From: Candidatus Parcubacteria bacterium | Lineage (GTDB): Bacteria > Patescibacteriota > Minisyncoccia > Minisyncoccales > JAGMDC01 | DNA length: 64,000 nucleotides | Assembly (NCBI GenBank): GCA_023131895.1 | Contig: JAGLYZ010000002.1 | Location: 240,474-304,473 of the forward strand | Direction of reading: 5' to 3' | The notes under the pieces: generated by a model | Seen by the model: only the letters and a program-made list of their open reading frames with translations | Database searches by the model: none | Told to the model about the DNA's origin: nothing | Position numbers and translations under genes: made by a program | Shown: in pieces, positions 3,920 to 53,865 of the stretch | Position numbering within the stretch: the stretch's first letter is position 1 | Layout: every line of letters starts with the position of its first letter

Positions 3920-4447
3920 TTATTTTTTGAAAATTTTTATTATTAGCCAGCTAGAGAAAACGCCAATAACAGCGCCAGCAAAAATATCTAAGGGCCAATG
4001 AATCCCGCAAAAAACTCTGGCTAAACAAATTAAAAAACTGGCTATAAAAAATAAAATGCCAGCTCTTTTATTGTAAAAATAAATTATTGTTGATAAAGCA
4101 AAGTAAAAAGCGGCATGCCCTGAAGGAAAAGCAGAAGTAGGAGCATGAGTTAAGAGAAGATTAACATCGTTATCAATAAAGGGTCTGGCTTTTGGCAAAA
4201 TCCAGCGAATGATTTCTGTAAAAACTAAACGGGAAAGAATGCCGGCTAAAATCGCCTGCCAAACCATTGGCCAATATCTCTTGAAGTTCTTTACTAGAAA
4301 GAAGAATAAACAAAAAACTAAAGCATACTCAAAATACTTGGCAAAAAAAATACCTAAACTATCTAACCAGGCATACTGCCCTGCCCAATTATTTACTATT
4401 TGAAATAAATAAAAATCTATATCCATTGTTTCATTTTTTATTCCCAA
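3920..4447 (-). CDS. PAP2-family lipid phosphate phosphatase (membrane)
   Basis: 175 aa polytopic protein with the three PAP2 motifs: KARPF, PSGH and ARVFCGIHWPLD. Confidence 0.85.
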   Translation of the reverse strand: MGIKNETMDIDFYLFQIVNNWAGQYAWLDSLGIFFAKYFEYALVFCLFFFLVKNFKRYWPMVWQAILAGILSRLVFTEIIRWILPKARPFIDNDVNLLLTHAPTSAFPSGHAAFYFALSTIIYFYNKRAGILFFIASFLICLARVFCGIHWPLDIFAGAVIGVFSSWLIIKIFKK

Positions 4448-13716: not shown

Positions 13717-14283
13717 ATTCTTATAGTGGGGTTAGGCAATCCTGGAGAAAAATATAAAAGGACGCGGCATAATGTTGGATTTATGGTTTTAGATGAATTT
13801 AAAAAAATTCATAGTTTTTCTGATTGGCAATTAAAAAAGAAATTTAAAGCAGAAATTTCAGAAGGCACTTTAACAGGCAAAAAAATAATTTTAGCAAAAC
13901 CGCAAACTTTTATGAACGAGTCAGGCAAAGCAGTAAAAATCATGCAACAAGAGACAAGAGACAAGAGACAAGAACTATATGTTATTCATGACGACTTGGA
14001 TTTGGGATTAGGAAAAATGAAAATCGTTCAAAACCGCGGCTCTGCCGGACACAAAGGAGTACAGTCAATTATTAATGAGATTGGCAATAAAAACTTTATC
14101 CGTTTTAGAATTGGAATTAAAAATAAAGAACTGGAAATCCAAAATATTGAGGATTTTGTTTTAAAAAAATTTACAAAAGATGAAAAAAAAGTTATAAAAG
14201 AAACTGTGCAAAAAACCTGCAAGGCAATTGAAATGGCAATAAAACAAGGCATTGAAAAAACAATGTCAGAATTTAATAAATAA
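13714..14283 (+). CDS. pth: Peptidyl-tRNA hydrolase
   Basis: 189 aa with GLGNPGEKYKRTRHNVGF N-terminal signature. Confidence 0.92.
   Translation: MILIVGLGNPGEKYKRTRHNVGFMVLDEFKKIHSFSDWQLKKKFKAEISEGTLTGKKIILAKPQTFMNESGKAVKIMQQETRDKRQELYVIHDDLDLGLGKMKIVQNRGSAGHKGVQSIINEIGNKNFIRFRIGIKNKELEIQNIEDFVLKKFTKDEKKVIKETVQKTCKAIEMAIKQGIEKTMSEFNK
13951..13971. repeat. Tandem heptamer (GAGACAA)x3 inside pth
   Basis: A perfect 3-unit tandem repeat, in frame, encoding ETRDKRQ. Confidence 0.85.
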
Positions 14284-16912: not shown

Positions 16913-16923
16913 AATTATTTTTT

Positions 16924-17080
16924 AGACCTCTTGCAAAATAATCTTTTCTACTGCAATCCCAGAATTTTGGCTGCAAATCATTCAGAGATGCGCGCTATAC
17001 AATGTATAACCTCCTCATTCTTCATAATTTTCGCTCAAAATTTTGTGATTTCGTTACGAAAAATTATTTCGCAATAGGTC
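16924..17080 (-). mobile_element. MITE-like element, copy 1 (about 157 bp, imperfect 18-23 bp terminal inverted repeats)
   Basis: About 88% identical by manual alignment to the reverse complement of 52969-53127. Ends are AGACCT(A/C)TTGC(G/A)AAATAA. The right end supplies the sufD codons RPIAK plus stop. Confidence 0.75.
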
Positions 17081-18026
17081 TTTCTAAAAATCCATTAACA
17101 ATTAAATTAATGGCTTCTTTTTCGTTTAATCCACGCATTCTTAAATAATTTAATTCCTCTCCTGAAATTCTTCCAATTGAGGCCTCATGAGTAATTTGAG
17201 CTTTTGGGTGTTTGCAAATAAGCTCTGGTATAAGCCTTATTACAGAAGCTTTGCCTGCCCCGTAGGTCCCGCCCCTGCGGGATCCTTCGGGGTCAACTAA
17301 TAACCCCTGGCAGTCCAAATGACCTTTGCTTTCAGACTCGGCTATAACTTGAGAACGAGCAGTAATTTCGCTATCTTTATCTCCAACTAATCTTAATTTC
17401 ACTATTCCAGAAGCACCTTTTTCTTTTAGAATTAATGTCTCTTCAAATTCTGTTTTGGTTTGAGAAAATTTTCCCACAATATTCAGATTAGCAGAGGATC
17501 CTTCCAAAAGAGTAATTAATGTTTTCATCTTTAATTTTTTAGGAGGAGAAAAAACTTTATAACTATAATCTAATTTCGCCTTTTTCTCTAAGAAAAACTC
17601 ATAATTTGGCTCAACAATATCTCTTTCTCCCCAAGAGTGAATATGTCTATATTGAAGAGTTGATCCTTGTCTTAAAATAATCTTCCCTTTTGCCTGATGT
17701 ATTCCAGCTAAATTCTTTTTTAAAGCATTACAAGTTCCTTGGAGCTCTACTTTTAAATTCTTTTCTACAATTAAAAGATTCTGAAGCTCCTGCTTTATGC
17801 TTTTATTAGCAAGAGTAATACAAGTAAAAATGGGCTGTTGAGGTTGTTCTTTAACCCAAATAAAATAGCCGCTTTTTGGTTTTTTAAAAAAATATTCTTT
17901 AGTCCAGTTATATTTCTGCCAAGCCAATTCAGAAGGAAGAATCTCTATTTCTTTCAACTCACAAATTTCTGGAATTTGATTATTTATCTGATAATAATTC
18001 ACATTTTTTACATTTTTCATATCCAT
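17064..18026 (-). CDS. sufD: Fe-S cluster assembly protein SufB/SufD family
   Basis: 320 aa with C-terminal SufBD beta-helix pattern (ITHEASIGRISGEELNYLRMRGL). Overlaps the sufC 3' end. Confidence 0.75.
   Translation of the reverse strand: MDMKNVKNVNYYQINNQIPEICELKEIEILPSELAWQKYNWTKEYFFKKPKSGYFIWVKEQPQQPIFTCITLANKSIKQELQNLLIVEKNLKVELQGTCNALKKNLAGIHQAKGKIILRQGSTLQYRHIHSWGERDIVEPNYEFFLEKKAKLDYSYKVFSPPKKLKMKTLITLLEGSSANLNIVGKFSQTKTEFEETLILKEKGASGIVKLRLVGDKDSEITARSQVIAESESKGHLDCQGLLVDPEGSRRGGTYGAGKASVIRLIPELICKHPKAQITHEASIGRISGEELNYLRMRGLNEKEAINLIVNGFLERPIAK
17258..17292. repeat. GC-rich hairpin inserted in sufD
   Basis: ccccgtagg-tcccgc-ccct-gcggga-tccttcgggg, a stem of about 15 bp with one mismatch. 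In frame, encoding PEGSRRGGTYGAG. Confidence 0.8.
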
Positions 18027-19587: not shown

Positions 19588-19624
19588 AGATTTTGAGTTT
19601 TTTAATTTTAAACCGACCTTTTTT

Positions 19625-32929: not shown

Positions 32930-33790
32930 TTAAATTTTAAACAACTTTTTAGCGTTTGTACTGGTGATTTCAGCTATTTTCTCAAGAGGGATATTTTTAA
33001 TTTTAGCAATATGTTCGGCAATGTATTTGATAAAAATGGGTTCATTTCGGCCCGCCTTCGCTAAAGCTTTGGCGGGCAAAGGCGGAGTTAAAAAAGGACA
33101 ATCTGTTTCAATCAAAATTCTATCTAATGGCGTTTTTTTAATTATTTCATCAAGGTCTAATTTAAAAACAATTCCATTAAAACCTAAATAAAATCCCATT
33201 TCTAAAAATTTCTCTGCCTGCTCCCAAGTACCGGTAAAAGAATGGATTACCGAGGTCAGACCTTCTATAGGAGGTCTGACCTCAAGTATTTCTATTAAAT
33301 CGTCGTGAGCCATTCGGCAGTGAAAGATTACTGGCAGATTTAATTCTTCGGCTAATTTTAATTCCTGCTCAAGAAGTGCTTTTTGTTTTTCTTTAAAAAG
33401 CGCAAGCTTTTTCTTTGTTTTCGGCTTATAGTAATAATCCAATCCAATTTCGCCAATAGCCACTACTTTTTTAGATTTTGCTAATTCTTTGTATTTATTG
33501 AAATTAAAATTCTCTTCTAATATATCTTCTAAGTTTTGAGTTTTAAGTTGTGGCTTTGACTTTTGAGTTTTGACTTTTGAGTTTTGTTTAATATTAATAG
33601 GGTGAAGTCCAATCGCCGCATATACTCTTTCATTATAATCCTTTGAAATTTCAACTGCTTTTTTTGAGGTCTCATAATTTGTCCCTACATTTATCATCCA
33701 AATATTATTATCTAAACATCTCTTTATAACTTCATCTCTATCTCTGTCAAAAGCAGCAAAATTAAGATGAGCATGAGTATCTACAAGCAT
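32930..33790 (-). CDS. tatD: TatD-family metal-dependent hydrolase/DNase
   Basis: 286 aa with MLVDTHAHL, the ...ETDCPFLTP... blocks and NEP. About 30 aa longer than usual because of three repeat insertions. Confidence 0.9.
   Translation of the reverse strand: MLVDTHAHLNFAAFDRDRDEVIKRCLDNNIWMINVGTNYETSKKAVEISKDYNERVYAAIGLHPINIKQNSKVKTQKSKPQLKTQNLEDILEENFNFNKYKELAKSKKVVAIGEIGLDYYYKPKTKKKLALFKEKQKALLEQELKLAEELNLPVIFHCRMAHDDLIEILEVRPPIEGLTSVIHSFTGTWEQAEKFLEMGFYLGFNGIVFKLDLDEIIKKTPLDRILIETDCPFLTPPLPAKALAKAGRNEPIFIKYIAEHIAKIKNIPLEKIAEITSTNAKKLFKI
33049..33085. repeat. AAGCTT-centred GC-rich element inside tatD
   Basis: ggcccgccttcgctaaagctttggcgggcaaaggcgg. Its reverse complement closely matches argS 47682-47708. 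Encodes PLPAKALAKAG between the CPFLTP and RNEP motifs. Confidence 0.8.
33252..33283. repeat. Perfect 12-bp-stem hairpin inside tatD
   Basis: gaggtcagacct-tctatagg-aggtctgacctc. In frame, encoding EVRPPIEGLTSV. Confidence 0.9.
33531..33587. repeat. G/T-rich ~57-nt repeat shared with ileS
   Basis: aagttttgagttttaagttgtggctttgacttttgagttttgacttttgagttttg is about 80% identical to 44810-44866. Encodes NSKVKTQKSKPQLKTQNL. Confidence 0.85.
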
Positions 33791-33825: not shown

Positions 33826-33962
33826 TGCAAAGAAAACAGATTTTTCAAATTAGGTTGGCGAGGATTCTGAATTTTCCGAAGACGTGTCGGAGCCCTTTAG
33901 GGTAAAGCGCGAGGAAATTTCGAAATCCGAGCAAACTGTAATGATTTAAAAATCTTGTTTTT
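33826..33962. repeat. Structured intergenic element between metG and tatD
   Basis: Long outer stem aaaacagatttttcaaat / atttaaaaatcttgtttt encloses GC-rich sub-hairpins. The scaffold resembles 41395-41498. Confidence 0.7.
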
Positions 33963-33969
33963 GTAGCCT

Positions 33970-35427
33970 TTACTTAATTCGCGGAAAAAGCGATTTGCTT
34001 TTTTTGGCTTTGATTTGTTTCAATATCTTTTCTGATGTTTCTGGTAAAAACGGCTCTAACATTTCAGCTATATTTGTTAAAGCAAATAACAACTCACTAA
34101 TTACTAATAACTGTCTCTCGGATTTCTCCCAAGGCCTTTCCTTTTCTATATATCTATCGCAATAACTAATTAACTTCCAAATTTCTTCCAATGCTTCATT
34201 AAATTTAAAATTATCTAAGGCATTTTTATATTTTTTCTCTGTATTTCTAATAGCTTTGGTTACTTTTAAATTTTGCTTGTCTCGTAGCAAGCTTGCTCTG
34301 CTTCGGGAAGTTTTTATTTTTTCTGCCATGGTCAAGACCCGAGCAGTAAGATTTCCCAGCCCTTTTGCCAAATCTGCATTATATCTTGCTTCAAATTTTT
34401 CATAAGTAAAGTCACCATCTTCAGTTGGAGAAATCTCCCTCAAAAGAAAATACCTAACAGCATCAGTCCCGTATTTTTCAACTAATACAAATGGGTCAAC
34501 AACATTTCCCAAAGATTTTGACATTTTCTGACCGCCAGATGTGATAAAACCGTGAACAAGAATAATTTTAGGTAGTTTTAGCTTTAAAGAAAGCAATATG
34601 CCAAGCCAAATTATAGCATGGAATCTGATTATATCTTTTCCAATACAATGTACATCAGCTGGCCAGAATTTTTTGAATTTTTCATTGTTCTGAGCATAGC
34701 CAAGAGCAGAAACATAATTTACAAGGGCATCGCTCCATACATAAATGGTCTGATTTTTGTCTTCTGGCACAGGAATTCCCCATTTCGAATTTTGCCTTGA
34801 GCGAGAGAAACTAATATCTTTTAACCCTTGCTTTACAAAACTTAAAATCTCATTTTTTCGGGTTTGAGGAATAATTTTAACCTTATCTTTTTCTATCGCC
34901 TTTTTTATTTTTTTTGAGTACTTTGAGAGTTTAAAAAAATAATTCTCTTCTTCAATAATCTCTGGCCTCTTTTTGTGAATAGGACATTTTCCATTCACTA
35001 AATCTTTCTTCGTAATAAAGGCTTCACAACCAATACAATAAAATCCTTTATATTTTTTCTTGCAAATATCGCCATTTTTTTTTAATTTCAGCCAAACCTT
35101 TTTTACTGTCGGCCAATGACGTTTTTGATCAGTAGTTCTGATAAAATCATCGTTAGATAAATTCAAAACATTTGTTAGGTTTCTAAACTTATCTGAAATC
35201 TCATCTGTAAATTCTTTTGGGTTCTTTCCAGCTTTTTCAGCCGCCTTTAAATTTTTTTGGCCATGTTCATCTGTTCCGGTTAAAAAGAAAGTTTCTTCAC
35301 TCAAAAACCGATGATATCTAGCAAGAACATCGGCTTGAATCAGTTCTTGAGCAAATCCTATATGCGGCAGAGCATTTGTATAGGCTAAACTACTAGTGAT
35401 ATAAAATTTTTTCTTTTTGCTTGACAT
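33970..35427 (-). CDS. metG: Methionine--tRNA ligase
   Basis: 485 aa class I aaRS with HIGF (HIGH-like), KMSKS and CxxC zinc knuckles. Confidence 0.93.
   Translation of the reverse strand: MSSKKKKFYITSSLAYTNALPHIGFAQELIQADVLARYHRFLSEETFFLTGTDEHGQKNLKAAEKAGKNPKEFTDEISDKFRNLTNVLNLSNDDFIRTTDQKRHWPTVKKVWLKLKKNGDICKKKYKGFYCIGCEAFITKKDLVNGKCPIHKKRPEIIEEENYFFKLSKYSKKIKKAIEKDKVKIIPQTRKNEILSFVKQGLKDISFSRSRQNSKWGIPVPEDKNQTIYVWSDALVNYVSALGYAQNNEKFKKFWPADVHCIGKDIIRFHAIIWLGILLSLKLKLPKIILVHGFITSGGQKMSKSLGNVVDPFVLVEKYGTDAVRYFLLREISPTEDGDFTYEKFEARYNADLAKGLGNLTARVLTMAEKIKTSRSRASLLRDKQNLKVTKAIRNTEKKYKNALDNFKFNEALEEIWKLISYCDRYIEKERPWEKSERQLLVISELLFALTNIAEMLEPFLPETSEKILKQIKAKKSKSLFPRIK
34262..34320. repeat. AAGCTT-centred in-frame element inside metG
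   Basis: acttttaaattttgcttg + core (agcaagcttgct, a perfect 12-bp palindrome) + agtttttatttt. The flanks match the argS element. Encodes KTSRSRASLLRDKQNLKV. Confidence 0.75.
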
Positions 35428-41394: not shown

Positions 41395-41498
41395 TTTGCG
41401 AAGAAAACCTATTTTTAAAATAGGATGGTGAGGATTTCTTGCTTTCCGAGACCCCGCCTTGGCGGGGAGGAAAGAAAGAAATTCGAGCGATCCTATTG
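41395..41498. repeat. Structured intergenic element upstream of glyQS
   Basis: Closing stem ataggat/atcctat, inner ccccgcc-tt-ggcgggg, and on the minus strand a second hairpin cctatttt-a-aaaatagg followed by TTTTCTT. Shares a scaffold with 33826-33962. Confidence 0.7.
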
Positions 41499-43187
41499 AA
41501 CAATGCCTTGTTCGTCAGTAATGGTTTCATCATCAGGCAGGGTTGTATCTATGTTTTCATCATTGCTCTCTAATAATTCTTCTGTCCAAGTATCTTCAGC
41601 AAAAATCAAAACTTCCTTAATAATTTCTGGTGTTTGTCCTGTTTGATGAATACTTGGCGTAAAAGCAATCTGGAAAGCCAAACTCATACTAACAGCAGAA
41701 ACATCAGAATCTAAAATACCTATTTCTGCTCCTAAATTTTCTATATTCCAAACAATTTCTCTAGAATCAGAGTCAAAAGAAAATTTTTCTTTTTGTTGTT
41801 CTGGAAAAATCTTACTAGTAAGGCTTACTTCTTTTGGCAAAACTGCTTTAACTCTTACATTTTTGATATCATTGTAATAATTCTTAATTTGCCAGATTAT
41901 AGTATAAGTGATAGTTTTACCAACTTCTGGAGGAATTGGTCCGGAATTCCCAAAGACCTCGTCTTGGAAATATCCTTTTTGTTCAACAACTAACTTTGAA
42001 TTCACTTTAGTTATAAATTCTTCCCGAGCTTGTTGAGCTAAATAAATTTTATTTTTTATTGTCAAATTTTTATCTCCTGAATTGTCCATTTGCCAGTCAT
42101 CTTTCAAATTTATCCAGAACTCAACCCTGCCCTCTTCTTGAGAATCTAAAAACTGGAGCTTTGAAACTTTTTTCCAGTCAAAAATAATTGAATTGTCTCC
42201 AGGCCCAAAATTACCATCAAATGTTTTAATGCTATTAAGATCAAACAGCTTTCCTTCCAGCTTTGTTACTAAAGAAAGATTAGTTAGCGCCTTTTCCCCG
42301 ATATTCCTAAAAAAAATCTCATAATGCAGCAAATCCCCTGCATTAGCAACATATTGCGGATTGCTATTAATCTGTTGTGAGATATAAAGCGATGGTTCAA
42401 TAATTTCAACGCCTTTGGACGCTTGTTTTAACAACACAAATTCCCCTTCTTGCCAAACACCAAATTCAGCTTGAAAAATTTTCTTTTCTCCAACATTGCC
42501 GGAAAGCTTGCCTGTAATCTCAATCCTGCCTCCCTCTGATTTATCTAAAAGATTGATTGACCAATCTGTATTTTCTAAAGCAGAAGGAGAAGACTTTATG
42601 AACTCAAAACCAAAAGGATATTCAACTTTTATGCCTAAATCAGAAAGAGGATAGTCAATATAAGAAAAATAATTCAAATGAAATTTAATTTCTTTGCCTT
42701 CCTGGATTCTTGAAGGAAAATCAAACTCAAAAGTCAAAGGGACCTTTTCAATAATAGAAGTAAAAGTGGTTTTTGATTCATATCGTGATTCTAAATTCTT
42801 GGGCCTGTAGGTCAGAACTGCCTTTGCCTGTTTTTTCTCGCCCTCTTTTCCTAAAAGCCGGGCTTTAAAACTGAATGTTTTCTCTTGACCAGGATAAATT
42901 GCCTCGCCTAATTTTTCAATCTCTATCTCGTCCCTCAAATGACCATCATCAGTTATTGAGTTTTCAGGGTATTCAAAAATAAGCTTTGGCTCTTCAACTC
43001 TTGTATTACCATTATTTTTATATTTAACAAGATACTCAATCTCTTCACCTGCTTCTACTTTTTCAGAACCCAATATTTCAAGCTTTATAATTTCTTTTGA
43101 ATAAATATTTTTCTGATAATACCAAAAACCAGTTACTCCTATAAGAACACTCAAAAATATTAAAAATAATATCAATTTGTTTCTCAT
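41493..43187 (-). CDS. N-terminally anchored hypothetical protein with repeated beta-sandwich-like modules
   Basis: 564 aa with a single N-terminal TM segment and recurring module pattern (..G..i.Y.i.y.N.G). No recognisable catalytic motif. Confidence 0.4.
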   Translation of the reverse strand: MRNKLILFLIFLSVLIGVTGFWYYQKNIYSKEIIKLEILGSEKVEAGEEIEYLVKYKNNGNTRVEEPKLIFEYPENSITDDGHLRDEIEIEKLGEAIYPGQEKTFSFKARLLGKEGEKKQAKAVLTYRPKNLESRYESKTTFTSIIEKVPLTFEFDFPSRIQEGKEIKFHLNYFSYIDYPLSDLGIKVEYPFGFEFIKSSPSALENTDWSINLLDKSEGGRIEITGKLSGNVGEKKIFQAEFGVWQEGEFVLLKQASKGVEIIEPSLYISQQINSNPQYVANAGDLLHYEIFFRNIGEKALTNLSLVTKLEGKLFDLNSIKTFDGNFGPGDNSIIFDWKKVSKLQFLDSQEEGRVEFWINLKDDWQMDNSGDKNLTIKNKIYLAQQAREEFITKVNSKLVVEQKGYFQDEVFGNSGPIPPEVGKTITYTIIWQIKNYYNDIKNVRVKAVLPKEVSLTSKIFPEQQKEKFSFDSDSREIVWNIENLGAEIGILDSDVSAVSMSLAFQIAFTPSIHQTGQTPEIIKEVLIFAEDTWTEELLESNDENIDTTLPDDETITDEQGIVQ

Positions 43188-43207: not shown

Positions 43208-43960
43208 TCAGAAATTTTCCAAAACAAAAGAAAGATAATCTTCAGAAATTGTTTCTAATAACTCTTTATTTTTTTCTTCAACTTTTAACTTTGATAGAAC
43301 AGACCAATCTTTTTGCAGAAAAAGCCGTAAAATTTTTATAACATCTGGCTTTATCTCTATTAATTTAGTCAAAGAATCCTCTTTTTTAATTTCCTGAGCG
43401 CAAACATTACAAACAATTCCCCCTTGCTCTGGACTGAAGTATAATTGAAATGGTTTTAATTCTTTTCCACAAGATGAACATTTATAAAACTCTGGCTGAT
43501 ATCCTAAAGCAGAAAGAAGATTCCAAAGAAAATAGTAGTATATAATTTCTAATTTCCAATTTCCAATTTTCATTGAATTTTCAATTTTCAATTTCTCAAA
43601 AACTTCTTTCAGTAATTCCCAAATTTTCTCGTCTTTTTCTTCATCTTTAACTAATTTATCCAAGACATCGCTAATTTGAAAAGCAGTTTTTAATTTTTCT
43701 AAATCTTTTCTTATATCTGGAAAGCTATTAATCAAAATAGTATCAGTCAAGGTTTTATAAGTTTTTCCTTGAATAAATTCAATTTCTGAAAGATAAAAAA
43801 GCCCTGCTCCGCCCCTTAGCTTTGATTTAATTTTTCTAATTGCTTTTCCTAAAATCTTTAACTTTCCAAAATCCTTTGTATAAACTACAAATAATTTATC
43901 TGATTCTCCTTGAGCAATCTCTGTTATAAAAAAACTTTTTGTCCTATAATGAACAGCCAT
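43208..43960 (-). CDS. recO: DNA repair protein RecO
   Basis: 250 aa with an OB-like N-terminus and a CxxC...CxxC zinc finger (CSSCGK...CNVC). Contains an AATTTYC low-complexity insertion at 43547-43595. Confidence 0.75.
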   Translation of the reverse strand: MAVHYRTKSFFITEIAQGESDKLFVVYTKDFGKLKILGKAIRKIKSKLRGGAGLFYLSEIEFIQGKTYKTLTDTILINSFPDIRKDLEKLKTAFQISDVLDKLVKDEEKDEKIWELLKEVFEKLKIENSMKIGNWKLEIIYYYFLWNLLSALGYQPEFYKCSSCGKELKPFQLYFSPEQGGIVCNVCAQEIKKEDSLTKLIEIKPDVIKILRLFLQKDWSVLSKLKVEEKNKELLETISEDYLSFVLENF

Positions 43961-43962
43961 AA

Positions 43963-46900
43963 TTAAATTCTTCTAATTCCCAGCCAGAGTTCTTGGCCTT
44001 CTATTTTAAAAGTTTTCTCAATATCAAAAACTCTTTTTGGTCTGTCACCCTCTAAAAGGTCCTTAACTACAATCTCTTTTAAAATTGTCTTTTTATTTTT
44101 CTTTAAAATTTCACAGAGCTTTTCTTCCCCAGAATATCTAACAAACACCCGGTGTTTGGGCTTATAACCAGCTTTTTTACGCATTTCTTGAATATTTCGA
44201 ATAATCTCCCTGATTATTCCTTCTTCTCTTAACTTCGGCGTAATTTTAGTATCTAATTTAAAGGTTTTATCAAAGGTAATTTTTTTCACATTTACTTCAT
44301 CTTTAATCAATCCTAATAATTCTTTATTCCTTTTTAGCTTTTCATTTTTACTTTTTACTTCGAGCAAAGCGAGCGGCTGACGGACTTTTATTCCTGCCTT
44401 TGCTCGTTGAGCCAATCCCTTTGCTACAATTTCCCGCACTATTTTCATTTTTTCTTCTAATTTCTTATCAATTGCCTTCTTATCTGGTTTTGGCCAATCT
44501 TCTAAATGAACAGATTTATTTTTCGAAGAATTTTGGCATATTTCTTCTGAAATAAATGGAACAAACGGGGCTGTCAACTTAGCTAAGCTAAGAAGAACAA
44601 ATCCCAAAGTTTGCGACGCTTCTTGAAAATCTTTTTTTGTTTTGGGGTTCTGAAATCTCTTCCTAGATCTTCTCACATACCATAAAGATAAATCGTTGAT
44701 AACAAAATCCTCTATATCTCTGGCCGCTGAAGTAATATCGTAATTATCTATCTTTTCAGAAACCCCTGAAATTAATTCATTTAATCTGGAAATTATCCAT
44801 CTATCTAACAAGTTTTGAGCTTTGCGTTGTGGCTTTGCACTTTGAATTTTGAGCTTTGAGTTTTCTTTTGGAACATATGTTTCAAAAAAGGTATATACAT
44901 TATAGTAAGTAAGAATAAATTTCTTTAATGCCTTATCTACATCTTTTTCTGTAAATAGTTTGGAATCGCCTGGCTGATTTATAGTATAAAAATACCAGCG
45001 AGCAGCATCTGAACCATATTTTTCAATTATATGCCAGGGATCAACCACATTGCCCTTGGACTTTGACATTTTTTCTCCCTTTTCGTCTAAAACATGGCCT
45101 AAAGAAATAACATTTTTATAAGGAGTGCCAAAATCTAATAAAGTTGAGATTGCCAACATGGTATAAAACCAGCCTCTTGTTTGATCAATTGCTTCGCAAA
45201 TATAATCAGCTGGAAATTGATTTTTAAATTTTTCTTGCTCAAAAGGGTAATGATACTGGGCAAACGGCATTGCGCCAGAATCAAACCAGCAATCAATCAC
45301 TTCTGGAACTCGCTTCATTAAATTATTACATTTAGGACACTCAAATTTTACTTCATCAATATATGGTTTGTGAAAATCCAATTCTTGATTTTCTTTATTA
45401 TAAGGAAAAAGCTTAAATTCTAATCTCCTTAATTCTCCAACATCCATACTTCTATCTTGCCAGTGTTGTGTAATTTCTTGTTGAGAAAATCCTTTAACAA
45501 TACTTTCCGCCATTAAGATTGGACCGCCATGGCTAACAATTAAAATATTCTTATTTTTGTATTTTTTATCTACTTCTTTTAGAAAATCGTAGACTCGCTT
45601 TTTAACATCTGTGTAGCTTTCTCCTTTAAACGGCCTTTTGTCAAATTTATCTATTTTCCCTTCAAATAATTTACGGTACTCTTTAATATTTTTACCATCA
45701 AAAATACCAATATTTACTTCTATTAAACGTTTATCATATTTTACTTTCTTTCCAATTTCTTTTGAAATAATTTCAGCTGTTTGCTTAGTTCTTAAAAAAT
45801 CAGAAGAGAATATTAAATCTATTTTTTCTTTTTTTAACTCTTGCACTGCTTTTTTAATTTGCTCCCTGCCTTTTTTAGTCAAAGGACAGCCAGCTCCCTT
45901 ATTTTTATAAGAAAGAATATGCTTTTTGAAGCACTCTGATTCTCCATGTCTTAAAATAAAATATTTATTAGTGCTGAATTTCTGTTTTAATAAATCATCT
46001 TTGCTTCCGATAATTTCTTGATAACCGCATTTTTTACACTGCCAAATAGGCAATGGAGTTCCCCAATATCTTTCTCTGGAGATAGCCCAATCCTTTAATC
46101 CTCTCAACCATTCGCCGAACCTGCCCTGCTTTAAATGCTTAGGAACCCAGTTTATCTTTTCGTTATTTTTAATCAAATCTCTCTTAACTTTTGTCATTTT
46201 AATAAACCAACTCTTCTGGGCATAGTAGATTAAAGGCGTCTTGCATCTCCAGCAAAAAGGATAGTCATGTTCATACAGTTCTTCTTTAAAAAGCAGCTTT
46301 CTCTTTTTTAAATCTTCAATAATCAGCGGATCAGCCTTTTTTACAAACAAATTATTCCACTTATATCCTGAAGTCATCATCTTGCCCTGCTCATCTACCG
46401 TAATCAAAACAGGAAGATTGTTTTCTTTGCTAACGTTCATATCATCCTCACCAAATGCTGGCGCAATATGAACCAATCCTGTGCCATCCTCTGTTGTTAC
46501 AAAATCTCCAGCAACTATCTTATAAATGTTTGGAATTTGGAATTTATACAAGGGTTTGTATTTAAGGCCGATTAAATCTTTTCCTTTAAATTCCTCTATA
46601 ACTTCGCCTTCTATGCCAGATTCTTTTATTCTGTTTTTCGCCAAAATCAAAAATTCATTATTAACTTTTACCTTAGCATAAATAAACTTCGGGTTGACTG
46701 CTACTGCTGCATTACCAGGCAAAGTCCATGGCGTTGTAGTCCAAACAAGCAAATATGTATTTTTCTGCCCTTTGATAGAAAACTTTACATAAATTGAGTT
46801 TTCTTTGACTTTCTTGTATCCTTGCGCCACTTCATGGGAAGATAAAGATGTTCCGCATCTGGGACAGTATGGCACAACTTTATAATCCTTATATAAAAGT

Positions 46901-47391
46901 TTTTTCTGCCATATCTGTTTTAAGAGCCACCAAACGGTTTCAATATAATCGGTTTCGTAAGTAATATAAGGATTTTTCATATCCAGCCAATAACCAATTT
47001 TCTCTGTTAAATCTTCCCAGTCCTTTTTATACTGCCAGACAGATTCCTGGCATTTTTGATTAAATTTTATAATTCCAAATTTCTCAATATCTTTCTTGCT
47101 TCTTAGCCCTAATTTTTTCTCAACCTCCAATTCAACTGGCAGACCATGCGTATCCCAGCCAGATTTTCTGATTACCTTAAAGCCATTCATTGTCTTATAA
47201 CGGCAAATCATATCTTTAAATACTCTTGCTTCAAGATGATGAATACCCGGCTTGCCATTGGCAGTAGGCGGCCCTTCATAAAAAACAAAATTGGGCGCTT
47301 TTTTTCGCTGCTCAATTGATTTTTCAAAAATCCTGTTTTCTTTCCAGAATTTTATAATCTTTTTTTCTAACTTAGAAAATTCAACTAACAT
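43963..47391 (-). CDS. ileS: Isoleucine--tRNA ligase with internal extra domain
   Basis: 1142 aa with a HIGH-type motif (PGIHH), KMSKS, a CP1 editing domain and zinc knuckles. Carries a ~190-aa insertion at about aa 476-665. Confidence 0.93.
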   Translation of the reverse strand: MLVEFSKLEKKIIKFWKENRIFEKSIEQRKKAPNFVFYEGPPTANGKPGIHHLEARVFKDMICRYKTMNGFKVIRKSGWDTHGLPVELEVEKKLGLRSKKDIEKFGIIKFNQKCQESVWQYKKDWEDLTEKIGYWLDMKNPYITYETDYIETVWWLLKQIWQKKLLYKDYKVVPYCPRCGTSLSSHEVAQGYKKVKENSIYVKFSIKGQKNTYLLVWTTTPWTLPGNAAVAVNPKFIYAKVKVNNEFLILAKNRIKESGIEGEVIEEFKGKDLIGLKYKPLYKFQIPNIYKIVAGDFVTTEDGTGLVHIAPAFGEDDMNVSKENNLPVLITVDEQGKMMTSGYKWNNLFVKKADPLIIEDLKKRKLLFKEELYEHDYPFCWRCKTPLIYYAQKSWFIKMTKVKRDLIKNNEKINWVPKHLKQGRFGEWLRGLKDWAISRERYWGTPLPIWQCKKCGYQEIIGSKDDLLKQKFSTNKYFILRHGESECFKKHILSYKNKGAGCPLTKKGREQIKKAVQELKKEKIDLIFSSDFLRTKQTAEIISKEIGKKVKYDKRLIEVNIGIFDGKNIKEYRKLFEGKIDKFDKRPFKGESYTDVKKRVYDFLKEVDKKYKNKNILIVSHGGPILMAESIVKGFSQQEITQHWQDRSMDVGELRRLEFKLFPYNKENQELDFHKPYIDEVKFECPKCNNLMKRVPEVIDCWFDSGAMPFAQYHYPFEQEKFKNQFPADYICEAIDQTRGWFYTMLAISTLLDFGTPYKNVISLGHVLDEKGEKMSKSKGNVVDPWHIIEKYGSDAARWYFYTINQPGDSKLFTEKDVDKALKKFILTYYNVYTFFETYVPKENSKLKIQSAKPQRKAQNLLDRWIISRLNELISGVSEKIDNYDITSAARDIEDFVINDLSLWYVRRSRKRFQNPKTKKDFQEASQTLGFVLLSLAKLTAPFVPFISEEICQNSSKNKSVHLEDWPKPDKKAIDKKLEEKMKIVREIVAKGLAQRAKAGIKVRQPLALLEVKSKNEKLKRNKELLGLIKDEVNVKKITFDKTFKLDTKITPKLREEGIIREIIRNIQEMRKKAGYKPKHRVFVRYSGEEKLCEILKKNKKTILKEIVVKDLLEGDRPKRVFDIEKTFKIEGQELWLGIRRI
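44810..44866. repeat. G/T-rich ~57-nt repeat shared with tatD
   Basis: aagttttgagctttgcgttgtggctttgcactttgaattttgagctttgagttttc. In frame, encoding NSKLKIQSAKPQRKAQNL. Confidence 0.85.
45397..45966 (-). other. Histidine phosphatase (PGAM-like) domain embedded in IleRS
   Basis: YFILRHGES (RHG catalytic motif), SSDFLRTKQTA, IEVNIGIFDG and IVSHGG (second catalytic His). It lies between the IleRS blocks ...PIWQCKKCGYQEIIGS and DFHKPYIDEVKFECPKC. Confidence 0.7.
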
Positions 47392-47393
47392 AT

Positions 47394-48989
47394 TTACATT
47401 TTTTTTGGCGCGGAAATGCCCATTAAATCAAGAGCATTTTTTAAAACGATTTTAACCGCCTCAATTAAAGCTAAACGGCTTTGGAAAAGCGCTTTGTCTT
47501 CTGTAATAACTTTGCAATCGCGATAAAACTGATGAAAAACATTTGCTAAATCAAAAGCGTATTGAGGAATTCTCTGAACCTGATAATCTTTAGTAGTATC
47601 CTCTATAATCTCTGGAAATCTAATAAGCTGTTTAATAAGTTTTAATTCAGTTGGATGATTTAATACTTTTAAGTTTTGCTTGCCCGCCGAAGCTTTAGCG
47701 AAGGCGGGAGTTTCGTATTTTGACTTTGCGAGGATACTGTGTATCCGAGCATAGGCGTATTGTATATAATAAACCGGATTTTTCTCTGACTGTTCTCTAG
47801 CTAATGCTATGTCAAAATTCAAATGTGTATTTATAGATTTTTGCAGAAAAAAGAACCTCATTACATCAGAACCAACTTCATCAAGCAACTCATCAATAGT
47901 AAAATAAACTCCTTTTCTTTTTGACATTCTCTGTTTTTCCCCTTTTCTTAAAATAGTTACAAACTGATGTAGAATAATTTCCAGTTTATCTTTATGTCCT
48001 AAAGCTTCTATTCCAGCTTTTAGTCCTGGAATATCTCCATAATGGTCAGTTCCCCAAACATTTATCACTTTAGTAAATTTTTTCTTTTCAAATTTATATC
48101 TATGATAGGCGATATCTCCAGCTAAATATGTTTTAGAACCATCTTGTTTAACTAACACCCTATCTCTATTATCACCATACTTTGAGGATTTAAACCATAA
48201 AGCTCCATCTTTTTTATAAACCAGCTTTTTCTTTTTTAAAAACTCTATTATTTCATCAACTTTTCCTGATTTATAAAGCCGGCTTTCAAAAAACCATTCA
48301 TCATATTTAATACCCATTTTCCGAACTGTTTTTTTAATCATTTCATCTATAATAATCTTTGCTGATTTTTGTCCAGCTTTATATGGATCTTTTTCTTTTA
48401 TTTGTTTATGAAGCTTATCTATATATTCTCCCTTATAAACTGCTTCTTTATCTTTTAAAACAGAATGGCCAAGAGCTAAAATCTGTTTTCCAAAATCATT
48501 GATATAGTATGCTTTTTCTATTTTAAATCCTGATTTTTTTAAAACATTTGCTAAAACATCGCCGAACGGTCCTCCTCTGGCATTACCAATAGTTAAAGGA
48601 CCAGTAGGATTTGCTGAAATAAACTCTATTTGGATTTTTTTATTTTTACCAATATTTAAATCTCCGAATTTTTCTCTTTTCTTTAAAATTTCTTTAACTT
48701 GTTTCTGCAAATATTCTTTAGAAATAAAAAAATTGACAAACCCGGGCTTTACAATCTCAACTTTCTCTAAAAACTCTGGATCAATAATCAATAAGTGATT
48801 ATTAATAATTTTTGCTATTTCCATTGGATCTTTCTTAAGGGTTTTACTAATCTGCATAGCGATATTTGTGGAATAATCGCCATATTTTTCCTGTTCCGGA
48901 TGCTCAATAGAAAAATCAATCCTATCTATAGAAAATTTTGCTTTAAAACATGCCTTTTCAACTATATTTTTTATATCCTCTCTAATCAT
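47394..48989 (-). CDS. argS: Arginine--tRNA ligase
   Basis: 531 aa with an N-terminal Arg-tRNA-binding domain, SANPTGPL (HIGH region) and a C-terminal DALR anticodon-binding domain. Confidence 0.92.
   Translation of the reverse strand: MIREDIKNIVEKACFKAKFSIDRIDFSIEHPEQEKYGDYSTNIAMQISKTLKKDPMEIAKIINNHLLIIDPEFLEKVEIVKPGFVNFFISKEYLQKQVKEILKKREKFGDLNIGKNKKIQIEFISANPTGPLTIGNARGGPFGDVLANVLKKSGFKIEKAYYINDFGKQILALGHSVLKDKEAVYKGEYIDKLHKQIKEKDPYKAGQKSAKIIIDEMIKKTVRKMGIKYDEWFFESRLYKSGKVDEIIEFLKKKKLVYKKDGALWFKSSKYGDNRDRVLVKQDGSKTYLAGDIAYHRYKFEKKKFTKVINVWGTDHYGDIPGLKAGIEALGHKDKLEIILHQFVTILRKGEKQRMSKRKGVYFTIDELLDEVGSDVMRFFFLQKSINTHLNFDIALAREQSEKNPVYYIQYAYARIHSILAKSKYETPAFAKASAGKQNLKVLNHPTELKLIKQLIRFPEIIEDTTKDYQVQRIPQYAFDLANVFHQFYRDCKVITEDKALFQSRLALIEAVKIVLKNALDLMGISAPKKM
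47665..47722. repeat. AAGCTT-centred GC-rich in-frame element inside argS
   Basis: acttttaagttttgcttg + gcccgccgaagctttagcgaaggcggg + agtttcgtatttt. Encodes ETPAFAKASAGKQNLKV. Confidence 0.8.
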
Positions 48990-49919: not shown

Positions 49920-50319
49920 GGGAGTGTCAGGTCTCGACAGAAATTTGAGTTAAAATATGCAAGTCGAGTTTTCTCAAATCTCGCAAAACTTTGAGAAAAA
50001 AATAAGTGTCAACTTATTTTCTAAAGCTAAAACGGCTCTCGTTAACGCCATTGGCGAATATCCGAGTGTTCCGACTTTAGCTCCTGCTTACGTTTAATCG
50101 TAAGTCATCTGATTGTTGATTCTCGCTGGGCAAAATCAGGTGTTATATTTAGCGAGATACTCAGTTCTCTTGTCTCAAAGGACTGGGAAAAATATAGAGG
50201 CTAAGAATATTGAAATTTTGTTCATTTTTTATTTAGTATTCCGAAAAAACAAAATGGACTAAATTTGTAGAAATATTTTGGCAAAATTTCTGGACAGGGC
50301 TTCGATGCCCTCACTTCCA
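49920..50319 (+). ncRNA. ssrA: tmRNA (SsrA)
   Basis: Begins 4 nt after the smpB stop. 5' GGGAGTG pairs with 3' CACTTCC, and a tRNA-like T arm (agggcTTCGATgccct) plus discriminator A are present. An internal ORF at 50026-50097 ends ...TLAPAYV-stop. Confidence 0.8.
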
Positions 50320-50330
50320 CATAAAATAAT

Positions 50331-51728: not shown

Positions 51729-51767
51729 TTTTACCCCCCCTTATTCTTTTTTTAAATTACAATTTTC

Positions 51768-51849
51768 TTTTCTTTATTATAACAGACTTTAGTCTGATAT
51801 ATCAAATCTTTTCTTTATTATAACAAACTTTAGTTTGATATATCAAGTC
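51768..51849 (-). promoter_or_regulatory. Tandem duplicated (2 x 41 bp) consensus promoter with spacer palindrome
   Basis: Each unit on the minus strand reads TTGATA, an 18-nt spacer, then TATAAT. The spacer palindrome is cagac-taaa-gtctg in the proximal copy and caaac-taaa-gtttg in the distal copy. Confidence 0.65.
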
Positions 51850-52298
51850 TCTGATTTGCTGTAGCGCTTTTTTTCAATAAAATCATTGGCTTTTTTGAGA
51901 ACTTCTTTAGTATTATCAAATTTAAGCCGCTTTGTTGCCTGCTCATATAGCAGCCACTGAAAGCCAATATGTTCAGGAGAAAGCTTTATTTTTTCTATTT
52001 TTGTTTCAGCTAAATAGAAAGTGACTATCTTAAAAATGTTTTCCTTCTTAAATTTAAAAAAATATTTTATCCATTCTTTAAATCCATTAACAAATTTTAA
52101 ATCTTTAATTCCTGTTTCTTCTTCGGCCTCTCTTTTCACTGTTTCTAATTCTTTTTCTCCTTTTTCAATATGGCCTTTGGAAAAATCCCAATAATCTTCC
52201 TGGGATCTTGAACCAGAAGGATAATGTAAAAGAAGATAATAAATTTTATCTTTTTCTTTTCTAAAAATTACTGCTCCAGCAGATTTTTCAAAAGGCAT
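51843..52298 (-). CDS. NUDIX hydrolase
   Basis: 151 aa with Nudix box GHIEKGEKELETVKREAEEETGI. Confidence 0.88.
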   Translation of the reverse strand: MPFEKSAGAVIFRKEKDKIYYLLLHYPSGSRSQEDYWDFSKGHIEKGEKELETVKREAEEETGIKDLKFVNGFKEWIKYFFKFKKENIFKIVTFYLAETKIEKIKLSPEHIGFQWLLYEQATKRLKFDNTKEVLKKANDFIEKKRYSKSET

Positions 52299-52967: not shown

Positions 52968-52968
52968 A

Positions 52969-53127
52969 AGACCTATTGCGAAATAATTTTTCGTAGCGAA
53001 ATCACAAAATTTTGAGCGAAAATTGTGAAGAATGAGAAGGTTATATGTTGTATAGCCAACGAATTCTGAACAATTTGCAGCCAAAATTTTGGGATTGCAG
53101 TAGAAAAGGTTATTTTGTAAGAGGTCT
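52969..53127 (+). mobile_element. MITE-like element, copy 2 (about 159 bp)
   Basis: An inverted copy of 16924-17080. Its right end supplies the DUF72 codons RPLTK plus stop, and its left end lies 1 nt from the ATG of the MFS-like gene. Confidence 0.75.
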
Positions 53128-53865
53128 ATAACTTAAAAGTTGTTTTGCGTTTTCAACAGCATAACCCATAGTATCATTGTTGAAATACACATAAACATCC
53201 AAACCTTTTTTTCGCCATTTTTTGATTTTCTGAGCCAAATTTTCAAGTTCTTTTTTCGTATATTTCGAACTAAATAAAATTTTAGAACCATGCATTCTAA
53301 TATAAACAAAATCAGCTGTTATCTCCTCGGCTTTTGGAAAGGAAGGTGAATCACTAATAACCCATGCGCAGTTGTATTTTTTTAGTAACTTGTAAATTTT
53401 CTCATTACACCAAGTTTGATGCCGAAATTCAAAACTATACTTTAAATTTATCGAAGTCCGACTTCGTAATATTGTTAAAAACTCTTCTAATCTTTTTGTA
53501 TTCTCGTCAGTAGCTTGAAAGTTTGGAGGAAATTGGAACAAAATCGGACCAAGCTTTTCTTTGAGATTTAGGGCATTTTCTAAAAAAGTTTTCCAGGGTA
53601 TTTTTACATCCTTTAACCGTTTGATGTGGGTAATGAAACGACTTGCTTTGACACTAAATATAAAATCTTTAGGAGTTTGTTTATACCAATTCTGATAAGT
53701 AGCTGGCTTTGGTAAATGATAAAAAGAATAATTTACTTCCGCTGTCTTGAAATGCTCTGAAAAATATTTCAATTTATCTTTTCCTGATAAATCTTCAGGA
53801 TAAAAAATACCATCCCAATGAGAATAGACCCAACCCGATGTTCCGATAAAAACTTTGCCTGCCAT
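53110..53865 (-). CDS. DUF72-family protein (YecE-like)
   Basis: 251 aa with the N-terminal IGTSGWVYSHW signature of DUF72. Confidence 0.8.
   Translation of the reverse strand: MAGKVFIGTSGWVYSHWDGIFYPEDLSGKDKLKYFSEHFKTAEVNYSFYHLPKPATYQNWYKQTPKDFIFSVKASRFITHIKRLKDVKIPWKTFLENALNLKEKLGPILFQFPPNFQATDENTKRLEEFLTILRSRTSINLKYSFEFRHQTWCNEKIYKLLKKYNCAWVISDSPSFPKAEEITADFVYIRMHGSKILFSSKYTKKELENLAQKIKKWRKKGLDVYVYFNNDTMGYAVENAKQLLSYRPLTK

Follow-up and report, generated by a model that had tools for sequence, protein, structure and literature searches.

A short heptad-built DNA repeat found in frame in ileS and tatD of a Parcubacteria bacterium and at further loci in other Patescibacteria

A Segment Common to ileS and tatD

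We analyzed a stretch of 64,000 nt (the window) from Candidatus Parcubacteria bacterium (GenBank assembly GCA_023131895.1, contig JAGLYZ010000002.1, positions 240,474 to 304,473), in which the genes for an isoleucyl-tRNA synthetase (ileS) and a TatD family hydrolase (tatD) each contain, within minus-strand open reading frames (ORFs) and in the same frame, a short segment composed of seven-nucleotide units. On the plus strand the segments read AAGTTTTGAGCTTTGCGTTGTGGCTTTGCACTTTGAATTTTGAGCTTTGAGTTTTCT (44810-44866) and AAGTTTTGAGTTTTAAGTTGTGGCTTTGACTTTTGAGTTTTGACTTTTGAGTTTTGT (33531-33587), agree without gaps at 47 of 57 positions (82%), and are translated as NSKLKIQSAKPQRKAQNL in ileS and NSKVKTQKSKPQLKTQNL in tatD. 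A preliminary description of the window had claimed an in-frame repeat of about 80% DNA identity, built from 7-mers and common to two unrelated enzymes, which this comparison and the profile matches given below bear out. The host genes and the two copies, with the limits of 54 nt that we derive below, are:

32930..33790, minus strand: tatD, 286 aa, with the element in a loop after GLHPIN
33532..33585, minus strand: tatD copy of the element, TatD aa 68-85, peptide NSKVKTQKSKPQLKTQNL; profile score 44.7 bits, E = 4.9e-12; 93% identity to the consensus; coding strand AAAACT CAAAAGT CAAAACT CAAAAGT CAAAGC CACAACT TAAAACT CAAAACT
43963..47391, minus strand: ileS, 1142 aa, with the element in a loop between ...FETY and LLDRWI
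44811..44864, minus strand: ileS copy of the element, IleRS aa 842-859, peptide NSKLKIQSAKPQRKAQNL; profile score 48.0 bits, E = 4.5e-13; 85% identity to the consensus; coding strand AAAACT CAAAGCT CAAAATT CAAAGTG CAAAGC CACAACG CAAAGCT CAAAACT

The window TatD is 100% identical to a database entry named "TatD family hydrolase [Candidatus Parcubacteria bacterium]". In IleRS the element falls between the Pfam domains tRNA-synt_1g (aa 741-820) and Anticodon_1 (aa 863-1008). In the AlphaFold2 model of the window TatD, which has a mean pLDDT of 90.3, the sole segment below 50 comprises aa 71-84 and lies within the element, so that its translated peptide is predicted to be a floppy, disordered linker.

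A BLAST comparison of the window with itself aligned the ileS and tatD segments over 55 nt at 83.6% identity (E = 2e-5), and a repeat search extended the match to 70 nt at 80%, making it the top direct-repeat family of the window. The proposed comparison of the window with the ileS 57-mer found nothing comparable beyond this pair, the next-best match (tatD array aside) reaching 33 of 57 positions, while the best matches in 200 dinucleotide-preserving shuffles of the window averaged 31.9 (sd 1.0) with a maximum of 35. Generic low complexity of K/Q-rich sequence, which the preliminary description had set against its own claim, thus does not account for 47 identical positions.

The other long direct-repeat families of the window connect three class I aminoacyl-tRNA synthetase genes, which we read as paralogy.

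Copies in Public Genomes and Metagenomes

Scanning one genome per GTDB species for the exact pattern AGCCACAANNNAAARCTCAAAAC, about 20 bases of the 3' core of the element, yielded 22 loci, and a scan of Joint Genome Institute (JGI) metagenomes with a similar pattern (20-22 bases of the 3' core overall) yielded 27, many of them organisms of the genome scan sampled again (loci are cited below by L numbers). In most metagenome loci, and in about 18 of the 22 found in genomes, the 30 nt upstream, which the search pattern left unconstrained, contain the same four heptads with the same total length. Together the two scans amounted to 23 full copies once redundant ones were set aside. Searched with a profile derived from 27 copies, the full copies in the examined loci, both window copies included, reach 44-54 bits; in the 64-kb window the profile returned nothing significant beyond the ileS and tatD copies. 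Since the search relied on an intact 3' core, the collection is biased toward young or well-kept copies, and their apparent conservation is inflated.

Most copies are found in lineages of the ultra-small bacteria of the Candidate Phyla Radiation (CPR, or Patescibacteria), in more than 10 different genes and several phylum-level CPR lineages, under the labels Chisholmbacteria, Peregrinibacteria (two species), Saccharibacteria (several metagenome-assembled genomes, MAGs), Paceibacterota, Minisyncoccales, Portnoybacteria, Nealsonbacteria and Parcubacteria. The few found in MAGs labelled otherwise belong to a Verrucomicrobiales MAG (64% GC) and to a "Pseudomonadales" MAG of 36-37% GC whose label is unverified. 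Every source is a metagenome assembly, tandem repeats can break or mis-join assemblies, and several ORFs consisting purely of heptads are annotated as partial, as would fit contig ends. An assembly or binning error, or mere AT-rich low complexity, is nevertheless hardly credible as the origin of the family: the copies lie in the middle of long ORFs, in frame and with homologous sequence on both sides, the shuffle control rules out composition, and identical loci were recovered independently from separate samples and projects (L001 = L027, L035 and L049; L017 = L038; L013 = L044 and L045).

A viral contig collection scanned for the core gave zero matches. Rfam 15 has no family at either window site; the only features of the window that reach its gathering scores are the tmRNA (49920-50322, 128 bits) and one tRNA (1766-1849). 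A concatenated three-frame peptide of the element, compared with 5.8 billion proteins, retrieved only small ORFs of pure (CTCAAAA)n and no gene-embedded copies. Nor did we find a description of the element in literature on CPR repeats, heptanucleotide repeats and in-frame repeats or by its core and peptide strings, Elhai et al. (2008) having been considered through citing papers only; the 54-nt element thus appears to be undescribed so far.

Anatomy of the 54-nt Element

The element comprises 54 nt or 18 codons, if its first unit is taken as 6 nt, and consists of eight degenerate heptads of which two are one base short. The pattern on the coding strand is AAAnCT, three units CAAAnnn, CAAAGC (6 nt), CACAACn, nAAAnCT and CAAAACT, with a non-repeat core, CAAAGC-CACAAC, formed by units 5 and 6 and lying at equal positions in the ileS and tatD copies. 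Information content drops steeply at both ends (this and the following values refer to the 23 non-redundant copies). The 57-nt limits first proposed are too wide by 1 nt at one end and 2 nt at the other. Mean pairwise identity is 85%, or 78.5% in the 5' 29 nt left free by the scan. Within these 29 nt no variation occurs in any of the 14 CAAA columns, against a mean major-allele frequency of 0.68 for the remaining nine. All 23 full copies have the eight units, the 6-nt fifth unit and the CACAAC core; the sole variants, which stand outside the 23, are two short forms (L022 and L046) lacking exactly three units. Many copies also exhibit a 14-nt sub-period, in which unit 1 equals unit 3 and unit 2 equals unit 4. 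Tandem Repeats Finder reports period 7 at both window sites (33532-33586, 8.0 copies; 44841-44864, 3.4 copies).

The consensus is AT-rich (~30% GC) and not palindromic. In a single copy we detected neither terminal inverted repeats nor self-complementarity, one strand being CA-rich throughout, and a search for target duplications of 2-5 nt in the 23 copies gave no consistent direct repeat at any boundary offset. Among the copies the first unit differs (AAGCT, AATCT, AAAGT, AGCG), the 3' unit is constantly CAAAACT and the flanks are not duplicated, so that the AAAACT bounding the segment at both ends, which had initially been left open as either a repeat unit or a target duplication, can be assigned to the former. 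The CA-rich strand has two or more frames free of stop codons (all three in the CTC variant), whereas the G/T-rich strand has a TGA in every heptad. As sense RNA a single arm folds at 0 to -3 kcal/mol, less stably than any of 200 shuffles (z = +1.2 to +2.0).

Other Heptad Arrays

Seven-nucleotide periodicity is not confined to this element. The window holds three period-7 arrays against 0.01 expected from triplet-block shuffles. Tracts in recO, in pth and near 19593 had been listed as related in the preliminary description; none of them matches the profile of the 54-nt family, and what holds of that suggestion is that recO and pth contain period-7 arrays, though of other units, that belong to a wider period-7 habit of the lineage. 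The pth array (window 13947-13973) is a perfect (ACAAGAG) x 3.9 in frame (QQETRDKRQE); the pth gene of L052 has a true family copy, in a different loop from the window array. The same recO loop contains (GAAAATT/GGAAATT)n in the window (43544-43595), (CTGTTTC)n in L008 (~2240-2275) and a GC-rich hairpin in L050 (~1000-1050), and this variety marks it as a hot spot of insert turnover. Pure (CTCAAAA)n arrays occur between genes in the complete genomes of a planctomycete, Stieleria neptunia (L053:4130-4345), and a cyanobacterium, Kovacikia minuta (L054:3910-4095), where they adjoin a second heptad array of (CTTGAAA)n or (GGGATGA)n, and are also present in Bdellovibrio. Gene callers turn such arrays into ORFs of QNSKLKT repeats, which in some records bear the name "cell division protein FtsB". 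From these comparisons the heptad unit is widespread, and it is the fixed 54-nt arrangement with its core that is specific to the family.

The occurrence of pure heptad arrays in unrelated bacteria, the excess of such arrays in the window, other heptad arrays in the same loops of relatives, the 14-nt sub-period and the short forms lacking exactly three units could all be taken to mean that slippage expanded a separate (CAAAACT)n microsatellite at each locus and that the likeness of ileS and tatD is convergence. We consider this improbable, since a short fifth unit and a CACAAC unit at matching positions in both copies are not expected from independent slippage. The same non-repeat core recurs at units 5-6 in 23 of 23 copies, with the same unit number and sharp ends across the different genes and lineages, and neither the fixed length nor the common one-base deletion at one unit is predicted by slippage. 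Frequent gain or loss of individual units at the ileS and tatD sites between strains, or a graded series of lengths and cores, has so far not been observed.

Copies Within Genes

Stop-to-stop ORF analysis of every non-redundant copy placed about 19 of them inside long ORFs, in all three codon phases and with the CA-rich strand as the sense strand in every case. This orientation follows from the TGA codons of the opposite strand, and a length that is a multiple of three combined with a stop-free CA-rich strand permits the element to be read in any phase. The hosts are:

Phase 0, peptide NSKLKAQNSKPQLKTQNL: IleRS (window, L008, L052), TatD (window, L050, L051), and further an MtaB-like radical SAM enzyme, a Memo-AMMECR1 fusion, PyrB, ValRS, ThrRS and a 783-aa membrane protein
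Phase 1, peptide KLKAQSSKLKATTQNSKL: three GT4 glycosyltransferases, MiaB, a MinD/NUBPL-like ATPase, an EamA transporter and a Tyr/TrpRS
Phase 2, peptide KTQS..HN.KLKT: a short form in another MiaB

According to Pfam, most of these copies sit between domains (OTCace_N/OTCace, Memo/AMMECR1, UPF0004/Radical_SAM, the N and C halves of GT4, and the ValRS core/Anticodon_1), and the copies within genes would be translated as K/Q/N/S/T-rich peptides at linkers and surface loops. Two features of the nucleotide sequence fit real translation: the junction of units 6 and 7 in phase-1 copies, at which CTT would give TAA, is CTC in six of seven and TTA in one of seven, and the ending CAAAACTAA, frequent in intergenic copies, never occurs in phase 0.

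The recurrence of the peptide in frame in many proteins, mostly at domain boundaries, and its retention at one site in TatD orthologues might be attributed to the protein level, with the 18-aa K/Q peptide being a linker, tag or interaction module that is selected as such and arose by convergence or exon-like shuffling. This explanation is very improbable, because one DNA is read in three phases to give three different peptides and is found between genes as well. Furthermore, disorder is predicted for the segment, it is missing from close orthologues, and in TatD orthologues amino-acid identity within the element (0.58-0.75) stays below its third-position nucleotide identity (0.75-0.92 in this comparison).

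Intergenic Copies and Inverted Pairs

Between genes, copies are either single or, often, paired with an inverted second copy at a distance of 8 to ~340 nt, and close inverted pairs fold far better than their shuffles (z = -4 to -12.5):

L023: inverted pair, -66 kcal/mol, z = -12.5
L012: inverted pair, z = -4.7
L041: inverted pair, z = -5.2
L014: inverted pair, z = -4.1

At the Verrucomicrobiales locus, of 64% GC, a 658-aa ORF is followed directly behind its stop codon by an AT-rich pair, in a place that resembles a terminator's and suggests a foreign origin. One Saccharibacteria MAG has two identical copies, one between rnc and rpsP and the other just after rpsC, each followed by a similar ORF of 18-19 codons and a partial inverted arm.

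Conservation and History of the Copies

In the TatD orthologues of the window, L050 and L051, which share 65-69% amino-acid identity, the element occupies the same codon. Nucleotide identity among them is 76-89% in the element and 69-71% in the rest of the gene, and the excess is greater at third codon positions (72-89% vs. 47-55%), while amino-acid identity within the element (0.58-0.75) is below that of the flanking conserved blocks. Protein-level selection would thus fail to explain either the invariance of the CAAA period or the third-position excess. By their pattern, these two features suggest that the DNA or RNA itself is constrained, or that other copies continually re-template the element.

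Over 4.4 kb, the locus L008, from the Minisyncoccales MAG of a congener, is 84.8% identical to the window, and it holds the same ileS copy including its unusual CGC codon, so that this copy is older than the split between the two. Together with the tatD orthologues in L050 and L051 this indicates that the two window copies are old and separate, and not recent duplicates of each other. Their presence among relatives is patchy. The alignments of IleRS and TatD envisaged by the preliminary description, made here with 120 homologues each, locate the element at one tatD site and reveal a hypervariable IleRS loop, occupied in other sequences by different 7-aa-periodic peptides or by GC-rich inserts; the strict core is present in 7 of 120 TatDs and in 1 of 120 IleRS fragments. 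The closest relatives of the window TatD (P0005, P0007, P0016 and P0033) lack the entire loop, and the core is altered within a pair of TatDs (P0018/P0097) that are 95% identical outside the loop. The picture for concerted evolution within genomes is mixed and gives no clear signal: L006 does not differ from L009, the two window copies disagree at 10 of 57 positions, and about 8 differences separate L005 from L015. Adenine mutagenesis of the type found in diversity-generating retroelements was considered and rejected, as the differences between the window copies extend beyond A positions.

These patterns raise the question whether the element is kept by selection as a putative DNA or RNA signal, and not as selfish DNA, with the copies inside genes being functional themselves. 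Such a cis-acting signal would be an unstructured, C-rich and G-poor array presenting YC or CAAA every 7 nt, for example a rut-like site for loading of Rho, or a site for a protein that reads heptads. Primary sites of Rho bind YC dinucleotides on unstructured C-rich RNA of ~57-80 nt. The invariant CAAA columns with variable neighbours, the third-position identity in tatD and the sense-strand RNA that is less structured than 200 of 200 shuffles are all compatible with such a role, as are the copies of the Saccharibacteria MAG, one in the interval from rnc to rpsP and the other in that from rpsC to the following gene; moreover, L041 and L042, which are intergenic orthologues, have diverged at 3 of the 54 element positions, compared with 4-7 of 28 flanking ones. 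We nonetheless regard this as a tenable but unlikely alternative. The binding factor is so far purely hypothetical, and the TatD relatives without the loop indicate that the element is dispensable for both host protein and gene. The altered core within the P0018/P0097 pair also speaks against strict maintenance, and ascertainment through the intact core exaggerates the conservation. A signal function would overlap with our main explanation and would be compatible with spread by copy-and-paste.

A complete histidine-phosphatase domain (His_Phos_1, E = 1.8e-37) is inserted within the catalytic region of the window IleRS (window 45466-45960, aa 478-642), and some homologues also contain PF00300. 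Many IleRS matches are pieces of 400-550 aa on long contigs, which suggests split genes.

Origin and Spread

We observed a family with a common anatomy, present in coding and intergenic contexts and with an excess of nucleotide conservation, and consider it probable that the ileS and tatD segments are copies of a short, coding-compatible interspersed repeat that spread through the CPR. Existing copies would give rise to new ones through copy-and-paste or ectopic conversion. Of the insertions into essential genes such as ileS and tatD, only those that are in frame, free of stop codons and placed in tolerant loops would survive, and there they would be translated as disordered K/Q/N/S/T-rich peptides, while inverted pairs between genes could act as long, terminator-like hairpins.

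Several observations weigh against this interpretation. The element has no inverted ends, produced no target duplication and matched nothing in the viral collection; no associated transposase or reverse transcriptase turned up in the loci of 8-20 kb, in which no systematic search for transposases was made. Among the 120 TatD and 120 IleRS homologues no filled and empty sites close enough to form a pair were found for the 54-nt element, and its mobility is for this reason deduced from its distribution. The apparent copy number is low, with 2 full copies per 64-kb window. The same loops hold other heptad arrays in other lineages, so some of the turnover may be tandem-repeat evolution in place. 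Finally, the bias toward young or well-kept copies mentioned above inflates conservation, and some taxon labels, such as that of the "Pseudomonadales" MAG with 36-37% GC, are unverified.

GC-Rich Hairpins in Heptad Tracts

Some heptad tracts are themselves interrupted by short GC-rich segments. In L008 the ileS element is broken by a segment of 36 nt (~885-920), and in L052 GC-rich hairpins (2088-2115 and 3958-3990), one in the ileS copy and a different one in the pth copy, separate unit 4 from unit 5. The TatD genes of L055 (empty) and L056 (filled) differ by a clean 30-nt GC-rich hairpin exactly at a CAAAAAT/CAAAAAT boundary, without duplication; the two proteins are 92% identical, and the DNA is identical for >100 nt downstream and ~40 nt upstream of the site. 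This difference is direct strain-level evidence of mobility for the class of GC-rich hairpins. Heptad tracts would double as landing sites for a second class of mini-insertions, GC-rich hairpins of 26-36 nt.

Two further genes of the window combine heptad-like and GC-rich sequence:

47664..47728, minus strand: argS composite, with heptad-like flanks CAAAGTCAAAATACGAAACT ... AAGCAAAACTTAAAAGTA round a 26-nt GC-rich palindrome (47683-47708); peptide AKSKYETPAFAKASAGKQNLKV
34261..34321, minus strand: metG composite, with AAAAATAAAAACT, a GC-rich segment and AAGCAAAATTTAAAAGTA; peptide KIKTSRSRASLLRDKQNLKV

In both, the GC-rich palindrome is followed by a near-identical heptad-like flank of 18 nt, AAGCAAAAYTTAAAAGTA (2 matches in the window vs. 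0.17 expected). The 54-nt profile detects neither composite, and they are possibly related to the 54-nt family, with uncertain membership. The argS palindrome has a second copy in tatD (33051-33079 vs. 47680-47708, 29 nt, 97% complementary), and the palindrome CCCGCC..GGCGGG is in frame in both TatD (33051-33076, PAKALAKAG) and ArgRS (47683-47708, PAFAKASAG), on opposite strands.

It is tempting to speculate, although we consider it rather doubtful, that the CPR harbor a two-tier system of very small mobile DNAs, composed of the 54-nt element and of GC-rich hairpins of 26-36 nt that insert precisely at its heptad boundaries. The CAAA-N3 period of the first tier would be kept by its action on single-stranded nucleic acid, for example as an array that loads Rho or binds a protein, and it would spread without inverted ends or target duplication; acting jointly, both tiers would continually reshape linkers in essential enzymes, aminoacyl-tRNA synthetases among them.

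Comparison With Known Repeats

The closest parallel we considered is the Rickettsia palindromic element (RPE), which is palindromic and ~105-146 bp long (Ogata et al., 2000, as summarised in PMC3184786). RPE and the present element have in common that they are short, interspersed in the small genomes of host-dependent bacteria, and present between genes and also in frame in protein-coding genes, where they are translated and tolerated; in our case ORFs run through the element and its translation is presumed. Unlike RPE, the element is 54 nt long, strand-asymmetric, built of heptads and, as a single copy, without a hairpin, and it is distributed across several CPR lineages and not within one genus. 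We therefore regard it as analogous to RPE, by likeness of habit, and not as a member of that family.

The short tandemly repeated repetitive (STRR) sequences of cyanobacteria are reportedly arrays of near-identical 7-nt units, variable in length and located between genes. They share the head-to-tail 7-nt units with the element, which differs in its fixed number of degenerate units, unique core, sharp ends and dispersal in coding sequence. MITEs (miniature transposable elements with inverted repeats), repetitive extragenic palindromes (REP), bacterial interspersed mosaic elements (BIME) and REPIN are likewise small, non-coding and interspersed, and the intergenic inverted pairs of our element resemble the stem-loops of MITEs and REPIN. 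A single copy, however, lacks the terminal inverted repeats and target duplication of a MITE, and also the GC-rich palindrome (~35 bp) tagged by GTAG/CGTC that characterizes REP, BIME and REPIN, its consensus having ~30% GC. The paired arms, being 8 to ~340 nt apart, do not form one fixed unit as in a MITE or REPIN. DNA uptake sequences (DUS of Neisseria, USS of Pasteurellaceae) have cores of 9-12 nt and occur about once per kb. They too are found in and between genes, in inverted terminator-like pairs and with conservation at the nucleotide level, but the element is longer (54 nt) and rare (2 full copies in 64 kb).

The small dispersed repeats (SDR) of Nostoc, called "very small mobile repeated elements", are said to be 21-27 nt long. 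Papers citing Elhai et al. (2008) describe them as ~20 bp, "might be mobile", reported from Nostocaceae only and using another short repeat, HIP1, as an insertion site, and these papers mention no transposon-like ends or mobilising enzyme. By these descriptions the behaviour of SDR is comparable to that of the GC-rich hairpins of 26-36 nt that insert in heptad tracts.

Rickettsia provides most of the known examples of repeats that reside within essential genes; if our interpretation is correct, the CPR have the same lifestyle of repeats with a tiny, non-palindromic heptad element. Many of the odd 7-residue-periodic K/Q/N/S inserts of aminoacyl-tRNA synthetases and other housekeeping proteins in the CPR would thereby be explained; such inserts confuse alignments, domain calls and phylogenies, and their recognition would aid annotation. 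The element would also be a marker for strain-level genome dynamics and a concrete case for studying how very small repeats move, and its perfect CAAA periodicity hints at a function at the level of the nucleic acid.

Further Repeats in the Window

The window contains additional repeats. An inverted repeat of ~170 nt, 89-94% complementary, joins 16915-17082 and 52968-53136, which are ~36 kb apart and lie largely between called ORFs. A 93-nt segment of L008 (4299-4391) matches the window at both 33843-33936 and 41413-41505, which suggests another repeat of ~94 nt. At 51766-51850 a 41-nt unit is present in 2.1 tandem copies with 93% identity, and each unit includes a small palindrome.

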